A stretch of 32,000 nt of DNA from an uncultured Erysipelotrichaceae bacterium (lineage in GTDB: Bacteria > Bacillota_I > Bacilli_A > Erysipelotrichales > Erysipelotrichaceae): positions 1,710,001-1,742,000 of the forward strand of contig OW818653.1 of NCBI GenBank assembly GCA_942492995.1. Direction: 5' to 3'. The notes beneath the pieces are model-generated. The model did not search any database and was not told the DNA's origin. It saw only the letters and a list, made by a program, of their open reading frames with translations. The translations under genes were made by a program, and so were the position numbers. Of this stretch, positions 4,606 through 14,854 are shown piece by piece (position 1 is the stretch's first letter; every line of letters begins with the position of its first letter).

Positions 4606-5229
4606 ATGAAAAATTTACTCAAGTTATTTTTGGTTATTACGCTAGGTTTAACAGTTTCCGCATGTTCGAATCAAACTGAAGAGTATGAAACGTATGTTAG
4701 AGGAGAATGGGAAGAGACTATCTATACGAATGATTTTGTTGGATTAACATTTACGTATCCTGAAGGATTTACGTTATTAACCGACGAAGAATTAATTAAC
4801 ATGTTTGAGATTGAATTAGATGATTCAAAGTTTGATGAACAAAAAGATAACTTTGAAGAGGCGATGGAATTAGCCACAACATTCTTTGACTTTACGTTAA
4901 TGAATTATAATACAGGCGAAAACGTAATGTTGATGGTTGAAGACTTAACAAAAACAAATAGTATTGATGTCACAACAGATGTGTACATGGATTTGTTTAT
5001 TGAGAACCTAATAAGTGTTCTAGAATACAGTTATGTGATTGGTGATAAATATGATGTCGTAATTGCAGGCGAAACATATCGAGTTGTTGATGTGACAATC
5101 GAAGATATGGCAATTCAAAAAGTATATATTCGAAAGAAAAGTAAATACATGATTGCGTTGACAATGTTTGAAATTATAGGACTTGAAAATGGGACGGCTA
5201 AGGTTTTCGAAGAGCTAAAGAATAATTAA
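4606..5229 (+). CDS. Lipoprotein of unknown function
   Basis: 207 aa. Signal peptide MKNLLKLFLVITLGLTVSAC has a lipobox (VSAC). The mature part is acidic. No family recognised. Confidence 0.7.
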   Translation: MKNLLKLFLVITLGLTVSACSNQTEEYETYVRGEWEETIYTNDFVGLTFTYPEGFTLLTDEELINMFEIELDDSKFDEQKDNFEEAMELATTFFDFTLMNYNTGENVMLMVEDLTKTNSIDVTTDVYMDLFIENLISVLEYSYVIGDKYDVVIAGETYRVVDVTIEDMAIQKVYIRKKSKYMIALTMFEIIGLENGTAKVFEELKNN

Positions 5230-7879: not shown

Positions 7880-8146
7880 ATGAATCTCAGAAAAGTTTTA
7901 TTAAGCCTAGCATTGATTTTCTTTAGTATTTTGTTTTACTGTATTTTACAAACATATGCGTTATTGGATACTGCAGTTAAAGCGACTGGTGTAACACTTG
8001 CTGAATTATCAGGTAGTGGATTTAATACATTTATCGTATGGCTTCAATTCCCGCTCGTTATTTTATTAATTATTATCTTCATTTATCTAATCTTTGGGGA
8101 TAAGAGTTTAACGGCACAAGCTCAAAACGCTAAACCATTAAAGTAA
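7880..8146 (+). CDS. Small membrane protein (2 TM), unknown function
   Basis: 88 aa with two hydrophobic helices. SD AAGGAG. The gene starts 8 nt after the phosphatase stop. Confidence 0.55.
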   Translation: MNLRKVLLSLALIFFSILFYCILQTYALLDTAVKATGVTLAELSGSGFNTFIVWLQFPLVILLIIIFIYLIFGDKSLTAQAQNAKPLK

Positions 8147-8191: not shown

Positions 8192-8848
8192 ATGGATAAT
8201 TTATATCAATTAAGGTCTAAGAATGATAAATCGATTAAACAACTTGATCCTGCATCAAGAGAATTAATTCGTTCTATCATGAGTAATATCAGTCAGTATG
8301 AAGTATCTCGTTATGAGTTAGAGAAGATTAAAGGGGATATTTTAGATAAAGCGCATGGTTATACAAAGCGTAATACATCGTTATTTAAAGAAGTGAAGAA
8401 TGTGAAAGCATATTGTACAAATCTAACAGAAAAGTTAAATCTAAGTAAAATAAGCATTAAGAACTTATTACTCATTGAGTACTTACCTATGATTGGTTTC
8501 TTCTTTATGTTTGTAATATTAGTCTTACACTTCTTAGGACTTTGGTTTAGTGGTAATGGTCTAATCACAAGTATTGATGTATCAGTTGGTTATCCAATCT
8601 TTATGGTAGTACAGTACTTCTCGATCGTGTATTTGTTATATCTTGAAAGACGATATTCAATTGAGAATAAATCGAAGAAAAATCTAGGCTCATTTGCGAA
8701 TATATTCCTAGTTCTTACCGTTATTCAGTTTATTTCCGATAGTCCAACACTATCAAGTACACTTATCCAATTAAATCTATTTGTGTTAGTTGGAATCTTA
8801 TTCCTATTCCTCGCATGGGTCGTATATAAAGAACTTCAAACAAATTAA
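8192..8848 (+). CDS. Paralog A: membrane protein with HAAS/DUF1129-like N-terminal helical domain and ~4 TM helices
   Basis: 218 aa. The soluble N-terminal ~85 aa end in KNVKAYCTNLTEKLN, with K-A-Y at residues 72-74. That is the same register as paralogs B, C and E. A hydrophobic C-terminal half follows. SD AAAGGAG. The gene has its own terminators on both sides. Confidence 0.7.
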   Translation: MDNLYQLRSKNDKSIKQLDPASRELIRSIMSNISQYEVSRYELEKIKGDILDKAHGYTKRNTSLFKEVKNVKAYCTNLTEKLNLSKISIKNLLLIEYLPMIGFFFMFVILVLHFLGLWFSGNGLITSIDVSVGYPIFMVVQYFSIVYLLYLERRYSIENKSKKNLGSFANIFLVLTVIQFISDSPTLSSTLIQLNLFVLVGILFLFLAWVVYKELQTN

Positions 8849-8852
8849 AACG

Positions 8853-8880
8853 ATAACTGATTCATTCAGTTATTTTTTTC
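8853..8880 (+). terminator. Rho-independent terminator
   Basis: Stem ATAACTGA / TCAGTTAT (8 bp, 5-nt loop) followed by T7. Confidence 0.8.
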
Positions 8881-8902
8881 TATACAACCCTAGATATTCT
8901 AT

Positions 8903-8913
8903 GTATAATATAC
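8903..8913 (+). promoter_or_regulatory. -10 box TATAAT embedded in palindrome GTATA-A-TATAC (candidate PadR auto-operator)
   Basis: TATAAT at 8904-8909 lies inside a perfect 11-bp palindrome at 8903-8913. Including 3 nt of flanking sequence on each side it reads TAtGTATAATATACcTA, which is imperfect. It sits ~20 nt upstream of the padR ATG. Confidence 0.45.
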
Positions 8914-8928
8914 CTAGGAGCACTAGGT

Positions 8929-9267
8929 ATGGATAAAAACTATATAGGAGCAGGTTCGAATTTATTAATATTAGGTTTAATTAGCCAAAGAGATCGTTAT
9001 GGATATGAGATTATTCGTGATTTAGAGATATTATCTGAAAACGTATTTCAATATAAAGAAGGAACACTTTATCCAATCTTACATAAGTTCGAGGCATTAG
9101 GATATGTAACATCCTATTTTAAACGTGAAAATAATAAAGAACGTAAGTATTACCAGATTACCAATACAGGACGTAAACAATTGATTATCGAGAAAGAAGA
9201 ATTTGAGCTATTTAAAAACACGTTGAGTAATGTCGTGGGGACATTTAAATATGAGTTCAGTGAGTAA
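8929..9267 (+). CDS. PadR family transcriptional regulator (short, ~110-aa subclass)
   Basis: 112 aa. LLILGLISQRDRYGYEIIRDLE ... KEGTLYPILHKFEALGYVTS ... RKYYQITNTGRKQL matches the PadR wHTH consensus. SD AGGAG. Confidence 0.9.
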   Translation: MDKNYIGAGSNLLILGLISQRDRYGYEIIRDLEILSENVFQYKEGTLYPILHKFEALGYVTSYFKRENNKERKYYQITNTGRKQLIIEKEEFELFKNTLSNVVGTFKYEFSE

Positions 9268-10009
9268 TTCATACATTAAACAGGTTTTGAAACATGTTAA
9301 GTTTTTTGTGGATCATCGTTCGATTAAACGTGAACTTAGAAGTCATATCAATGATTTAATTGAGGAACACAATTGGCAATCTCTTTCCAATGAAGAGTTA
9401 AATAATCGCATCATGGAAGAAATGGGTAATCCGGAAGATATTGGAAAAGAGTTAAATAAAATTCATCATCCTATTATCGGGTATGTTTGGGTAATTACTA
9501 GAGCAGTTTTTATTGTGATTCTATGTTTATCGCTCTATAACATATATAAATCAATTACCTTAACATCACAAAGCAGTCTTAATAAATCGGATGAAAATCT
9601 TGATATTAAAAGTATGCTTTATGCGATTGGATACACAAAGGGTGAAGATTTATCGAATGTAAAGTATAGGGATTGGGATATTCGAGAAGTAGTTGAGATT
9701 GATAATACTATATTAATTTTTGAAAGAGTCTTATTGCTTGAAAATGATAATTTAGTTCTTTTATATCGAACAGACGGAAAATTTAATCTGTTTAATCAAT
9801 ACAGTAATATTTTTATGTATAAATCTTTAAAACTTAATCTAAACGATAATAAAGAATATCCTCAAGATATTAATGTTCAAATGTGGATGAATGATTTAGC
9901 GATCATCTATTTTACAGGTGTACCATATGAAACTAAATCAATTAATTTGAATTTTGAACAAGTTAGTGAAGCATTTAATCTAAGTATTAATGGGGATAAT
10001 TATGAATAA
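9251..10009 (+). CDS. Single-pass membrane protein with DUF1700/HAAS-like N-terminal helical domain and ~150-aa extracytoplasmic domain
   Basis: N-terminal region IKRELRSHINDLIEEH...EELNNRIMEEMGNPEDIGKEL resembles the helical module commonly encoded next to PadR genes. One TM helix follows (IIGYVWVITRAVFIVILCLSLY). I prefer the start at ATG 9251: the SD-like GGGGA lies 9 nt upstream, and the gene then overlaps the padR end by 17 nt. The track ORF begins at 9230. Confidence 0.7.
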   Translation: MSSVSNSYIKQVLKHVKFFVDHRSIKRELRSHINDLIEEHNWQSLSNEELNNRIMEEMGNPEDIGKELNKIHHPIIGYVWVITRAVFIVILCLSLYNIYKSITLTSQSSLNKSDENLDIKSMLYAIGYTKGEDLSNVKYRDWDIREVVEIDNTILIFERVLLLENDNLVLLYRTDGKFNLFNQYSNIFMYKSLKLNLNDNKEYPQDINVQMWMNDLAIIYFTGVPYETKSINLNFEQVSEAFNLSINGDNYE

Positions 10010-10367
10010 GAAAATGAAGATTATACTTTATTTAGTAATTAGTATCTTTGGGTTAATCTATCTGTTGAAATCAAATCACATGTATTTGAGTTTAGAAGAT
10101 TATGGGAAATCTCGAGCTAAGGCAGAATTATTTAATAATCCAATCATTGATATTATTCAAATCAAGGGAAATGATGGCATTCTCCTAGCATACGAAGATA
10201 ACTATGTGTCTTGTTACTTCGGTAGGAAATCATTTGGTTTCTTGTGGAAAGACTTTTCTGGAATTGGAATGTTACGTGAAGTAGATGATATGAGTGATGA
10301 AGCTATTGAAACGTATAAACAAGATTGTATCTACTCATATGAGATTAATCATATGAAAGACTGGTGA
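10002..10367 (+). CDS. Small N-terminally anchored membrane protein, unknown function
   Basis: 121 aa from ATG 10002 with N-terminal TM helix KIILYLVISIFGLIYLL. The start overlaps the upstream stop (ATGAATAA). SD-like TGGGGA lies 5 nt upstream. Confidence 0.6.
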   Translation: MNKKMKIILYLVISIFGLIYLLKSNHMYLSLEDYGKSRAKAELFNNPIIDIIQIKGNDGILLAYEDNYVSCYFGRKSFGFLWKDFSGIGMLREVDDMSDEAIETYKQDCIYSYEINHMKDW

Positions 10368-10407: not shown

Positions 10408-10467
10408 AAAATATAGATAATCATTCGGGGGAATGTATGGGGAAACTAATCATTAAATTTTAGATGT

Positions 10468-10490
10468 AAAACTCATTTTTTGAGTTTTTT
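10468..10490 (+). terminator. Weak terminator/attenuator hairpin directly upstream of paralog B
   Basis: Stem AAAACTCA / TGAGTTTT (8 bp, AU-rich, T5 loop) followed by TTGTTTG. It ends 10 nt before the SD AAGGAGAG of paralog B. Confidence 0.5.
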
Positions 10491-10507: not shown

Positions 10508-11164
10508 ATGTCAGAACTTGTAATACTTAAAAAAGAAAATAAGAATTTAAGGAAATTACTTAAAGGAGATAATAAAAAGTTATTTTTAGATATCGACTAT
10601 TATATTTCAAGACATTATACTTCCAAACAAGAGTATCGATCCTTAATTAATGAAGTGTTAATTGATTTTTCAGATCGAACAAATCTTGGTGAAGATCTGT
10701 GGGATACAATTGAAGATCCTAAAGCATATATTGATAAGTATATTGAAAAGTATAATTTGGAAAAAACGAAATGGGGAACAGTAACAAGTGAATACATTTT
10801 AGTGTTTATAGGATTTCTATGTTTCTATTTCATTTCAACAAACTTTTTATCGCCATCTTCTAATATGCTTAATAATCCATGGTTAATTGAAGTTAGTACT
10901 GAAGGATTTTTTAAATGTTTAGGATATAGTACTTATGGTCTATATTTTGAACTACTAACCAAAGCAACTTTATTTAAAAAGAATAAAGCAATGACTACTC
11001 AAAAAATATTAGTGTTCTTCGGATGGGCTTTACTTATGTTTATTCTATTGGCTTTATCTGGTATGAATATTGTGACAATCACATTGCCTAAAGTAATCGT
11101 ATATTTAGTTTTATTTCTATGTATTTTACTCATTTATCTAATTCAAAAGAAAAGAATGTTTTAA
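10508..11164 (+). CDS. Paralog B: HAAS/DUF1129-like N-terminal domain plus ~4 TM helices
   Basis: 218 aa. EDPKAYIDKYIEKYN, with P-K-A-Y at residues 71-74. N-terminal LKKENKNLRKLLKGDNKKLF. Hydrophobic C-terminal half. SD AAGGAGAG. Confidence 0.75.
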   Translation: MSELVILKKENKNLRKLLKGDNKKLFLDIDYYISRHYTSKQEYRSLINEVLIDFSDRTNLGEDLWDTIEDPKAYIDKYIEKYNLEKTKWGTVTSEYILVFIGFLCFYFISTNFLSPSSNMLNNPWLIEVSTEGFFKCLGYSTYGLYFELLTKATLFKKNKAMTTQKILVFFGWALLMFILLALSGMNIVTITLPKVIVYLVLFLCILLIYLIQKKRMF

Positions 11165-11186
11165 TTAATCAATATTTGGGGGAACA

Positions 11187-11855
11187 ATGATTACAACTGC
11201 TGAACAATCGCAACAAATAAAGGACATTACGAAGAGTCTTGATCGAAGTGACACAATCTTTTGTATGCATGTCGATACTTACTTAAGACAATTTGACTTA
11301 CTTAGAAGTGAATTTATTGAGGCAAAATGGATAATATTGACAGATTTATATTCAAAAGTAATTGATGGAGTAAACATTTGGGAATTATATGAAGATCCAA
11401 AGGTGTATTGTGCGTCGATTGTGTCAAAGTATAATCGAAAATATCTAGGGTTTATAGGTGTAATAATTAAACGCGTTATACCATTGTATTTTGGGTCAAT
11501 CTTATTTATGTTATTAATATTTTCACCTAATGGTTTTTCAAGATTGTTATATTTAGATAATCCTGGTATAGAAATATCAGTAAATACTTTATTGAGATTA
11601 TCATTGATGGTGTTTCTATATTTCTCAACCAGATTATTTGAATACAAAATGTTATTTAATAAAGAACGAAGAAATTTTACGTTTTATTATAATGCGATAA
11701 TACAAGTCTTCATTTTAATAGTACTGACTAATAATTTTACATTAGAAAATAATTTAGCTCAAAACATGGTTACATTAAACCCAATGATAATGGTTATATT
11801 ATTAGGTTTAATTCTTATTTATTACATATATAACCTTAAAAAGTTAATCATATAA
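11187..11855 (+). CDS. Paralog C: HAAS/DUF1129-like N-terminal domain plus ~4 TM helices
   Basis: 222 aa. EDPKVYCASIVSKYN, with P-K-V-Y at residues 71-74. SD TGGGGGAA. 22-nt gap after paralog B. Confidence 0.75.
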   Translation: MITTAEQSQQIKDITKSLDRSDTIFCMHVDTYLRQFDLLRSEFIEAKWIILTDLYSKVIDGVNIWELYEDPKVYCASIVSKYNRKYLGFIGVIIKRVIPLYFGSILFMLLIFSPNGFSRLLYLDNPGIEISVNTLLRLSLMVFLYFSTRLFEYKMLFNKERRNFTFYYNAIIQVFILIVLTNNFTLENNLAQNMVTLNPMIMVILLGLILIYYIYNLKKLII

Positions 11856-11891
11856 GAAATATTAATAATATAGAGAGAAAGGAAATTCATT

Positions 11892-12539
11892 ATGAGTGAA
11901 GTTAAAAACGCAAATAAAATTCTCAAACGCAAATTATCTAAAGACAACTTAATGTTCTATAAAAAAATCCATCAATATATTCGTACACATGACATAACAA
12001 GAGATCAACAACATCAAATATTGAATGAAATACTATTGGATTTTGTAAATAGACAGAACAATGATGAGTTGTTAATGGGATCAATTCGAAACCCTGAAAC
12101 CTATACTAATGAAATATTAAGTAAATATGAAATTGGAAAAAGTAGTTTTGCGATGCTTACGTTAAGACGTTTTCTACCTTTAACAATAATAATCTACTGT
12201 ATATACTTTCTTTATCCTTCATTTCTTAATCCGTTTCCTTATTCAGATTTAAATCCAAATCTAGTAATTATACAGTTACAAGTATTAGTACTTGCGATAC
12301 TTCTGTTTATTTTATTTTTGGTTACTTCGGTGGAAAGTAAAGAAAAGATATTTAGACCTGGTTTAGGGTCAAGTGTTAAATCATTGATTGTTCTTATCGA
12401 TTTTATACTAACATTAATCGTGTTTGATCGATTTAAACATTTAATTGTCACGAGTATACTTGTACCTAAAGCTATCATTTATCTTTTCTTAGGTTTAGCA
12501 ATCCTTGTTAAATTTATTGATAGGAGGAAAGTATTATAA
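11892..12539 (+). CDS. Paralog D: HAAS/DUF1129-like N-terminal domain plus ~4 TM helices
   Basis: 215 aa. RNPETYTNEILSKYE at residues 66-80, a register shifted by -3. SD GAGAAAGGAAA. Confidence 0.7.
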   Translation: MSEVKNANKILKRKLSKDNLMFYKKIHQYIRTHDITRDQQHQILNEILLDFVNRQNNDELLMGSIRNPETYTNEILSKYEIGKSSFAMLTLRRFLPLTIIIYCIYFLYPSFLNPFPYSDLNPNLVIIQLQVLVLAILLFILFLVTSVESKEKIFRPGLGSSVKSLIVLIDFILTLIVFDRFKHLIVTSILVPKAIIYLFLGLAILVKFIDRRKVL

Positions 12540-13207
12540 TGAGTGATCTAAAAACTTTAAGAAAAGAAATGAATAATAGAATGAAATTGTTAGAAAAAGA
12601 TGATCAACATTTCATAAATGGTATCATCCGATATCTTGTAAAGTATGAATTTACGGATAATGAAATATTATCAATTAAGGATGAACTAATTAATAAGTCG
12701 AATGAATCAAGAGATAATTTTAGTGATATTACGCAAACAATTATTAATCCAAAAGAATATTGTAATAAGTTAATTATGAAAGATAATCGTAGAAAAGTGA
12801 GTTTGTTTAGTCAATTTACATTAGTATGGGGTGGTCTTACACTATTACTGTTACTAGTCACATTACTGTTTGATGGTGAGACATTTCGGATAAATGGTGG
12901 ACCGGATAATATGGTGTATACTGTTTTGAAATATAGTTTTATTAGGTACATTATCGGTTTTATGTTTATTATTTTATCTACTTACTTTGTGGATAGAAAA
13001 TTTGATTTTAATCAGAGAGTATATACATTTGTAAGTACTATTAGAATAATCATAATGGTACTTCTAATGGATAGAATATTCTATACTTCGATTGATGTGG
13101 AATGGATAAGAATCGATACAAAAATCATAATAGGATTGATAGTTCTAGTTTCAGTTATTACTCTTATTTTATACATCAGACAAAAAGAACTAAAAAAGCA
13201 GCCGTGA
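12539..13207 (+). CDS. Paralog E: HAAS/DUF1129-like N-terminal domain plus ~4 TM helices
   Basis: 222 aa. INPKEYCNKLIMKDN, with P-K-E-Y at residues 71-74. The start overlaps the paralog D stop (TAATG). SD AGGAGG lies inside the 3' end of D. Confidence 0.75.
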   Translation: MSDLKTLRKEMNNRMKLLEKDDQHFINGIIRYLVKYEFTDNEILSIKDELINKSNESRDNFSDITQTIINPKEYCNKLIMKDNRRKVSLFSQFTLVWGGLTLLLLLVTLLFDGETFRINGGPDNMVYTVLKYSFIRYIIGFMFIILSTYFVDRKFDFNQRVYTFVSTIRIIIMVLLMDRIFYTSIDVEWIRIDTKIIIGLIVLVSVITLILYIRQKELKKQP

Positions 13208-13215
13208 GGCTGCTT
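13192..13215. terminator. Shared hairpin between convergent paralog E and the helicase gene
   Basis: Stem AAGCAGCC / GGCTGCTT (8 bp, loop GTGA). The paralog E stop TGA sits in the loop and the helicase stop lies in the 3' arm. The T-run is good on the minus strand (A6 on plus) and poor on the plus strand. Confidence 0.75.
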
Positions 13216-14854
13216 ATCGTTTGTGACGGCTATAACCGTTGGAATGTCCACCGGTATTGCTTGTCTTAGGTTTAGGAGCACGACCAGTTAGTTCAAATGC
13301 TTTAATCTTAAAGCCTTTGATTGTTCCTTGGTTTAATGCGTCCACAACTTCACGGACAAATTCTTGTGGAATCTCAACATGTGAGAAACGATCTTGGATA
13401 CGGATCTTACCGATATCCTTACCACTGATACCAGCAGATTCTGCGATTGCGGAAACTAAGTGAGCTGCCGCAATGCCTTGTCTTGAACCAACATCCAACT
13501 CAATAGTTGTACTGTTGATCTTAGTAGCACGGCGTTGTTTTTCAATTGGACGTTGAGCTTCTTGGAAGATATCATCGCCAATTACTTTGTATAATAATGC
13601 TTCAGATAGTTGGATTGGGGATAGACCTTCATCCACTAGTTTTTCAACCAATGCTTTGATTTCAGCAGGAATATCTGCTTTTAGCGTCTTCATAATGTCT
13701 TGAGTCATGTGATCGAATCGAACAGATTGGATCTCATTTAATGAAGGCATTTCTTTACGAGCAATCGTAGCTTTTGTTAAACGTTCTAATTCAGAAATTA
13801 CATAACGTTGACGAGGTGTTGTTAGTGTAACGGAAATACCTGATTTACCAGCACGACCTGTACGGCCAATACGGTGAACATAATATTCTGTTTCTTGAGG
13901 AACGTCGTAGTTGAATACCATATCGAGTTCATCAACGTCAATTCCACGCGCCGCAACATCTGTACAAACTAAATGTTGGATCTTCTTGTTTTTGAATTTA
14001 CCCATAACAAGCGTACGCATTTCTTGTTTCATATCACCGTGAATTGCGGCAGTACTATAACCTTTAGAAGAGATGAGGGCACATAAGTCATCAACCATTT
14101 TCTTTGTGTTACAGAAAATCATACTGCTTTCAGGACGATAGAATTCTAATAATTGAACAAGTACTTTAGCCTTGTCACCTTGATTAACTTCGTACACGAA
14201 TTGTTGAATACTATTAACAGTCATTTCTTTCTGTTTAGTCTTAACATGTACTGGGTTAGTCTGATAATTATTCACAATGTCTAAGATTGCCTTAGGCATT
14301 GTCGCAGAGAAGAGTAACGTTTGACGTTCAGTCGGTAAAGACTTAATAATTTCTTCGATTTCTTCCTTAAAGCCCATCTTCAACATTTCATCCGCTTCGT
14401 CTAAAACGAGCGCTTTCAATGAGGAGAACTTTAATGTTCTACGATTGATGTGATCTTGAATTCTCCCTGGTGTACCAACGATGATATCGGCTCCACCTTT
14501 TAAATCTCTGATCTGTGTGGTAATCGGATCTCCTCCGTAAATGGAGACAACCCGTATGCCTTCTTTATATTTTGCAAACTTGCGCATTTCAGCGGTAACT
14601 TGCAGAGTAAGTTCTCGGGTTGGTGTCATGATGAGTACTTGTGGTAATCTCTTCTCAAGTACTTCCAATTTCTCTAATAAAGGTAATCCAAAAGCGGCAG
14701 TTTTACCGGTACCAGTTTGTGACTGACCGATAACATCTCTTCCATCCATAACGGCAGGGATGCACTGTTCTTGGACGGGTGTTGCTTCAACGTAACCAAG
14801 CTCTTCAATGGCTCTGTTAAGTTCAAACGATAAATTTAATTCACTAAATTTCAT
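13214..14854 (-). CDS. DEAD-box ATP-dependent RNA helicase with DbpA-type C-terminal RNA-binding domain
   Basis: Motifs ATPVQ (Q), SQTGTGKT (I), DEAD, SAT and HRIGRTGRAG are all present. The C-terminal ~75 aa resemble the DbpA/DeaD RNA-binding domain, followed by a basic tail. I set the start at ATG 14854 (MKFSELNL, SD AGGAAA). The track start at 14908 lies upstream of the predicted -10. Confidence 0.9.
   Translation of the reverse strand: MKFSELNLSFELNRAIEELGYVEATPVQEQCIPAVMDGRDVIGQSQTGTGKTAAFGLPLLEKLEVLEKRLPQVLIMTPTRELTLQVTAEMRKFAKYKEGIRVVSIYGGDPITTQIRDLKGGADIIVGTPGRIQDHINRRTLKFSSLKALVLDEADEMLKMGFKEEIEEIIKSLPTERQTLLFSATMPKAILDIVNNYQTNPVHVKTKQKEMTVNSIQQFVYEVNQGDKAKVLVQLLEFYRPESSMIFCNTKKMVDDLCALISSKGYSTAAIHGDMKQEMRTLVMGKFKNKKIQHLVCTDVAARGIDVDELDMVFNYDVPQETEYYVHRIGRTGRAGKSGISVTLTTPRQRYVISELERLTKATIARKEMPSLNEIQSVRFDHMTQDIMKTLKADIPAEIKALVEKLVDEGLSPIQLSEALLYKVIGDDIFQEAQRPIEKQRRATKINSTTIELDVGSRQGIAAAHLVSAIAESAGISGKDIGKIRIQDRFSHVEIPQEFVREVVDALNQGTIKGFKIKAFELTGRAPKPKTSNTGGHSNGYSRHKR

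Follow-up and report, generated by a model that had tools for sequence, protein, structure and literature searches.

A strain-variable array of highly diverged DUF1129-type membrane proteins at a PadR locus of uncultured Erysipelotrichaceae

Contig OW818653.1 of an uncultured Erysipelotrichaceae bacterium (GenBank assembly GCA_942492995.1) includes a locus in which a gene for a PadR-family regulator is accompanied by five extremely diverged membrane-protein paralogs, A to E. We analysed a 32,000-nucleotide stretch of this contig (forward-strand positions 1,710,001 to 1,742,000; hereafter the window), and all coordinates of the locus are window positions. The order of the locus is A, padR, a gene for a 259-aa protein, a gene for a 125-aa protein, a leader, and then the array B-C-D-E, which forms the variable tail. 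The five paralogs are:

8192..8848, + strand: paralog A, 218 aa, core copy of the DUF1129-like subfamily; motif proline missing (NVKAY)
10508-11164, + strand: paralog B, 218 aa, DUF1048-like N-terminal domain plus four transmembrane (TM) helices
11187-11855, + strand: paralog C, 222 aa
11892-12539, + strand: paralog D, 215 aa; motif NPETY, shifted by three residues
12539-13207, + strand: paralog E, 222 aa

The list of open reading frames (ORFs) bears out the sizes and tight packing of the four co-directional array genes claimed by an earlier reading of the letters (the original prediction), with gaps of 22 nt between B and C and 36 nt between C and D, and a 1-nt overlap (TAATG) between D and E. 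That reading had taken paralog A to be unlinked, but A belongs to the locus itself, 2.3 kb upstream, where it immediately precedes padR with a terminator-like hairpin in between. The array itself starts 1.2 kb downstream of padR, with two genes in between.

The five proteins are homologous and share one architecture. Global pairwise identities are 21-26% (26% between B and D over their full length), and every pair is significant against shuffled sequences (full-length z = 6.3-31.6), so that the likeness of these proteins goes beyond chance. The bulk of the signal lies in the N-terminal 85 residues (the N-domain), which alone give z = 2.7-17.4. The TM halves alone mostly give z < 3, the exception being B-D (z = 11), which agrees with the earlier impression that these halves share almost no sequence. 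As a circularity control we built a profile from 119 relatives only, each less than 35% identical over more than 100 aa to any of A-E, and many of them matching Pfam DUF1048 or DUF1129. This distant-only profile scores A at 96, B at 108, C at 56, D at 82 and E at 67 bits across positions ~1-221 of 223, and the best of 200 shuffles per protein stays below 8 bits.

Profile searches place the paralogs within a known family. An exhaustive hidden Markov model search of 1.84 billion representatives (E <= 1e-3), using a profile of the five paralogs and their orthologs (A2), retrieved 338 representatives, nearly all 213-230 aa long and matched end to end. When B and 123 of the matches were scanned individually (n=124), 94 matched Pfam DUF1048 (PF06304) and 49 matched DUF1129, and a word-index search with a wider alignment returned proteins annotated PF06570 and named 'DUF1129 family protein'. 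Paralog E itself aligns to Pfam DUF1129 over profile positions 4-201 of 207 (16.6 bits, E = 0.006), short of the gathering threshold of 29.1 bits; in the same Pfam scan A-D gave no DUF1129 match, and none of the five directly matched DUF1048 or HAAS. A wider family profile (A3), compared with PDB sequences, recovered 2HH6 (3e-7), 2O4T (3e-5) and 2O3L (6e-4) in the N-domain, and the narrow profile A2 matched nothing meaningful among PDB sequences. A tree that includes 123 library representatives groups all types found at this locus and its relatives with 18 of the representatives in one clade (45 of 153 sequences). The signature [D/N]-P-x-x-[F/Y] occurs in 14 of the 18 members inside this clade and in 8 of the 105 outside it. 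Thus, A-E form a lineage-specific, very diverged DUF1129 subfamily with a DUF1048-like N-domain. A tblastn search of plasmids and phages with B as the query had no match and so gave no sign of a mobile-element origin.

The original prediction had singled out a P-K-x-Y core that keeps its register across the paralogs, and the residue positions agree with it. PKAY (B), PKVY (C) and PKEY (E) occupy residues 71-74, as does VKAY in A, and PETY in D lies at residues 68-71, an offset of three residues; K-Y-N, K-Y-E or K-D-N follows at residues 81-83. The motif is, however, no special coincidence of this array, since the wider DUF1048/DUF1129 family has it as its signature. Among the distant relatives (n=119) its columns hold D in 87, Y or P in 63 and 23, K in 81, a variable residue, F or Y in 75 and 30, C in 106 and D in 92, so that the motif reads D-[Y/P]-K-x-[F/Y]-C-D family-wide. 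Its near-invariant cysteine falls at residue 75 (about nt 10730 in B). It is present in A, C and E and in types F and G of related strains (see below); B has Ile and D has Thr at this position.

The DUF1129 architecture, a helical N-domain of ~85 aa followed by four TM helices in ~220 aa, is found both in a structural model of B and in the hydropathy of all five proteins. The AlphaFold2 model of B is confident (predicted local distance difference test (pLDDT) 93, predicted template modelling score (pTM) 0.82). It has five N-terminal helices (residues 3-81), a small outer beta-hairpin and TM helices at residues 89-114, 131-153, 164-184 and 195-217. A Foldseek comparison of this model with the PDB gave as top match 2O3L_A, a DUF1048 structure (probability 0.97; root-mean-square deviation 2.2 Å over 76 columns; TM-score 0.72 normalised to the target), with a Foldseek E-value of only 1.1. 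By hydropathy, A, C, D and E each have four hydrophobic stretches; in B the second TM helix stays under the threshold, but AlphaFold2 models it as a helix with confidence. Because the TM2-TM3 loop and the C-terminal tails are basic, the positive-inside rule predicts that both termini, and with them the N-domain, are cytoplasmic.

A further ORF at 4606-5229 was considered as a sixth paralog and rejected, as it encodes a lipoprotein without a match to the profile. This predicted 207-aa lipoprotein has a signal peptide ending in LTVSAC and represents a second hypervariable surface-protein gene: it is 39-45% identical to its counterparts in the related loci L001 and L006, against 80-98% for the flanking genes, and it is absent from L002 and L007.

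The remaining features of the locus are:

7880..8146, + strand: s88, an 88-aa small membrane protein, always directly upstream of A
8853..8879, + strand: predicted AT-rich hairpin and T-run after A, terminator-like and kept in related loci
8881..8909, + strand: putative padR promoter, sigma-70-like TATACA-17-TATAAT, overlapped by a conserved imperfect palindrome
8929..9267, + strand: PadR-family winged-helix regulator, 112 aa (Pfam PadR E = 3e-23)
9230..10009, + strand: 259-aa HAAS-type protein, overlapping the end of padR
9990..10367, + strand: 125-aa protein, TM helix at the N-terminus, encoded after the 259-aa gene in every case
10419..10442, + strand: leader element AATCATTCGGGGGAATGTATGGGG, 24 nt, with the palindrome CATTC-N4-GAATG, just 3' of the -10-like TAGATAAT
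10468..10490, + strand: hairpin AAAACTCA/TGAGTTTT and T-run, attenuator- or terminator-like, directly 5' of the B ribosome-binding site
13196..13215, no strand assigned: GC-rich hairpin after E, common to the convergent DEAD-box helicase gene, with a T-run on the - strand only

Among the neighbouring genes, s88 is syntenic in L001, L002, L005, L006 and L007, and the 125-aa gene is syntenic across all padR-bearing loci; neither product matched a family in Pfam/NCBIfam scans. In the 259-aa protein, a helical domain at the N-terminus, ending in MGNPEDIG, is combined with a single TM helix and a beta-rich domain outside the cell. Its matches to Pfam HAAS (PF22564, E = 0.006) and to NCBIfam perm_prefix_1 (E = 2e-6) are both below cut-off. 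A further profile was made from 30 genes that follow distant PadR homologs, 14 of them carrying Pfam HAAS. The 259-aa protein reaches 95 bits against this profile and is therefore the classical HAAS partner of the PadR at this locus; A-E score about 0 bits against the same profile. The AlphaFold2 model of the 259-aa protein is less confident than that of B (pLDDT 70). A Foldseek search with it gave only weak Ig-like, NEAT-like and beta-sandwich matches to its predicted outer beta-sandwich, and homologs of the protein were seen within the lineage only. For the DUF1129 family itself, all three distant relatives found on long contigs lie immediately downstream of a padR gene in overlapping two-gene units, and one-to-one pairing with PadR is thus the canonical arrangement.

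The putative padR promoter is the best + strand match of the region (10 of 12 positions) and is conserved through to L006. Ahead of B lies a leader of 140 nt with the -10-like sequence, the element CATTCGGGGGAATGTATGGGG, and then the hairpin and T-run. The leader element is near-identical across all syntenic loci, regardless of which cassette type follows or how the rest of the spacer reads. It could serve either as a DNA operator for PadR or as an RNA attenuator. The leader had no match in Rfam, and its two hairpins show no covariation. The core stem of the hairpin before B is kept in eight loci and deleted in L019. In that strain the deletion (L019 8477-8525) apparently occurred between two ATGGGG repeats, so that the conserved leader element itself now serves the single cassette as its ribosome-binding site.

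Behind this conserved regulator and leader, the array differs from strain to strain. In the window and in L005, B-C-D-E follow padR, the 259-aa gene and the 125-aa gene, with all four ORFs intact. L002 and L003 carry B and D plus a pseudogene of a further type and lack C; L006 and L013 carry C-F-G; L016, L019 and L020 have F only, and L018 has G only. In L007 and L008 the entire block from padR to the array is absent, so that s88 and A lead directly to the helicase gene and A is retained without a local padR. The pseudogene in L002 (10733-11317) is a disrupted cassette, called as two pieces of 30 and 93 aa, and shares ~30% identity with type B. L007 also has a GAF-HD gene (12785-13921) between the DEAD-box helicase gene and htpG, where the window has none. 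In a neighbour-joining tree, types A, B, C, D, E, F and G each form a clade with 100% bootstrap. Adding one type on the short contig L009 and the L002 pseudogene brings the number of types to at least 8, from which each array draws 1-4 cassettes. These clades extend across strains whose housekeeping genes have a synonymous divergence (dS) of about 0.5-1.6, which upholds the claim that the duplications are old. We found no DNA repeats between cassettes able to drive recombination.

Conservation is uneven across the locus. Flanking housekeeping genes in the related strains are 80-99% identical to those of the window, and PadR is 93-99% identical in most syntenic loci (81% in L019 and L020). The values are 59-95% for A, 54-91% for the 259-aa gene, 56-90% for the 125-aa gene and 51-91% for array orthologs. 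The A ortholog in L001, an Erysipelotrichaceae metagenome-assembled genome (MAG), is 94% identical to that of the window, and many MAGs have A orthologs at 51-76%; C orthologs are 61-95% identical and the E ortholog in L005 is 91% identical. Thus, in most strains PadR stays at 93-99% where the surrounding membrane-protein genes drop to 50-60%.

The original prediction had expected diversifying selection on the tandem copies. Ratios of nonsynonymous to synonymous divergence (dN/dS) between orthologs, calculated gene-wide by the Nei-Gojobori method (NG86) with our own code, do not support it: they are 0.02-0.10 for flanking genes, 0.01-0.05 for PadR, 0.04-0.16 for A and 0.13-0.30 for B-E. Gene-wide positive selection on B-E can therefore be rejected, as no ratio exceeds 0.30; every type is under relaxed but purifying selection, at 2-10 times the flanking-gene values. 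Synonymous divergence within the array is mosaic. Against L005, dS is 0.97 for D and 0.19 for E, and against L002 it is 0.32 for D and 1.33 for B, with flanks at about 0.9. Such a pattern points to the exchange of alleles by recombination, and together with the fixed PadR it suggests that recombination shuffles alleles around a constant regulator. The parts of the proteins that vary differ between types. In type C the N-domain is most conserved and the TM helices are most variable; in type A it is the TM2-TM3 core that is conserved, and the N-domain varies.

The closest counterparts are the padR-DUF1129 units of Ca. Contubernalis alkaliaceticus (L010) and a Lachnospiraceae bacterium (L011). 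Like A-E, their proteins are ~215-225 aa long with a helical N-domain and four TM helices, carry the D-x-K-x-[F/Y]-C-D motif, show full-length profile homology and have a PadR gene nearby. In contrast, the window proteins fall below the Pfam cut-off and form a separate clade with [D/N]-P-x-x-[F/Y], and their array is not adjacent to padR and comprises 1-4 strain-variable cassettes instead of a single copy. HAAS domains have been unified by HHpred with DUF1700, DUF1129 and DUF1048, and the proposal is that they relay membrane signals to the PadR partner by way of a groove at a kinked helix (PMC11237479). The dyads of PadR and HAAS proteins, such as the Listeria LltR operon with Lmo0600 (DUF1700) (PMC11237479), consist of a standalone PadR followed by a membrane protein with a helical signalling N-domain, and at our locus it is the 259-aa gene that corresponds to the latter. 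Unlike these proteins, A-E match neither the HAAS model nor the HAAS profile of their own locus and belong to the DUF1048/DUF1129 branch. At the site that may correspond to the conserved GxP kink in the third HAAS helix, an equivalence suggested by a non-significant alignment only, the residues of B-E are [D/N]-P (70-71, or 67-68 in D) with no G, and A has N-V.

Two further systems offer functional precedents. In Listeria monocytogenes, the DUF1048 protein LftS is required for the aurantimycin-induced derepression of the targets of the PadR protein LftR (bioRxiv 10.1101/2023.07.27.550809). LftR-LftS resembles our locus in the DUF1048 fold and profile of the N-domain, in a linked short PadR (112 aa) and in the proposed co-regulator role. 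However, LftS and the crystallised proteins 2O3L, 2HH6 and 2O4T are soluble single-domain proteins of about 85-113 aa, and in the window this domain is fused to four TM helices and multiplied. In Bacillus cereus, enterocin AS-48 induces both the PadR BC4206 and the 4-TM protein next to it, BC4207, and the latter protects against it; AS-48 had no effect on DNA binding by the PadR in vitro (PMC2774856, PMC3506622). As described in those papers, this pair shares with our locus a PadR gene, a neighbouring 4-TM protein and an envelope-stress context, but BC4207 is a single gene and the window has an array.

Because of the HAAS-PadR, LftS-LftR and BC4206-BC4207 precedents, we consider A-E most likely to be membrane-anchored co-regulators or sensors of PadR, possibly also resistance proteins. 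The explanation that we favour, at somewhat better than even odds, is that the array is the variable tail of a PadR locus, with N-domains that act as co-regulators and 4-TM modules that report perturbation of the membrane. In such a scheme the N-domains of the cassettes would be membrane-tethered co-regulators of the single conserved PadR repressor, probably by binding it, and each 4-TM module would report a different membrane or envelope perturbation, for example by membrane-active antimicrobials. The signal would relieve PadR repression of the locus, with its presumed operon structure, and the membrane proteins thus induced may have a protective effect of their own on the membrane. The sets that strains carry differ, 1-4 cassettes from at least 8 old types, with alleles probably exchanged by recombination.

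Several observations weigh against the co-regulator proposal. Binding of PadR by the N-domains of A-E is a proposal only, and none of the five proteins exceeds a Pfam or NCBIfam cut-off in direct scans. An hhalign comparison of the paralog profile with the 259-aa HAAS family of the locus was not significant (probability 0.4%), and the link between DUF1048 and HAAS therefore comes from the literature only. Two genes and a terminator-like hairpin separate the array from padR, unlike the canonical pairs, and a promoter scan of the region identified no promoter for the array. The persistence of A in L007 and L008 indicates that the family can work without a local padR. Finally, the region-wise divergence among orthologs is mixed and gives no clean split into a conserved N-domain and a variable sensor.

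The competing explanation that we take most seriously, though we give it only about one chance in four, is that the cassettes are pure effectors: PadR and the 259-aa HAAS sensor would form the switch, each cassette would neutralise a different membrane-active peptide, and the N-domains would have no signalling role. A classical HAAS sensor does lie directly after padR, over-expression of the 4-TM protein BC4207, encoded beside a PadR gene, raises AS-48 resistance (PMC2774856), and a strain-variable content of old diverged types resembles immunity-gene islands. BC4207, however, is only a possible member of the family, alike by the description in that paper, and the canonical relatives are padR-DUF1129 pairs with no other sensor. 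In addition, the N-domain carries the conserved family signature and in type C is the most constrained part, which would be unexpected for a passive anchor. A further proposal, somewhat less probable still, sees in the locus a combinatorial, strain-polymorphic repertoire, in which an invariant PadR and leader would drive interchangeable sensor or immunity cassettes, taken from at least 8 ancient types that recombination shuffles, each for a different membrane-active antimicrobial.

It is improbable that the paralogs, expressed together, assemble into a single hetero-oligomeric complex in the membrane that requires the different copies at once. Their genes are tightly packed and translationally coupled and their products share a common architecture, as such a complex would suggest, but syntenic relatives function with one, two or three cassettes of differing types and the canonical relatives are single-copy. 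We give marginally less credence again to redundant duplicates drifting toward loss, with divergence due to relaxed constraint alone. The raised dN/dS of B-E (2-10 times that of the flanking genes), the pseudogene and missing C in L002 and the absence of the whole block from L007 and L008 would fit such decay; against this, dN/dS is clearly below 1 in every type (0.13-0.30), neither the window nor L005 has a broken ORF among the four, and types persist across strains despite saturated dS.

DUF1129 and DUF1048 are widespread Firmicute families. To our knowledge neither has an established function, and the idea of HAAS-PadR signalling has so far been mostly a comparative-genomics prediction. The locus described here is a divergent expansion of a known family in a known regulatory context and not a new kind of system, and the array is a modest variation on the known pairing of PadR with a partner. 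What is new is that one PadR would serve up to six membrane proteins of the HAAS superfamily, and that regulator and leader stay invariant while the set of cassettes behind them changes from strain to strain. With its naturally varying, diverged partners, the conserved PadR and leader offer a natural experiment on whether the N-domains regulate PadR, and on what the 4-TM modules sense or protect against. If the combinatorial repertoire proved true, PadR-DUF1129 modules would represent a diversifying envelope-defence system, comparable to immunity-gene islands.

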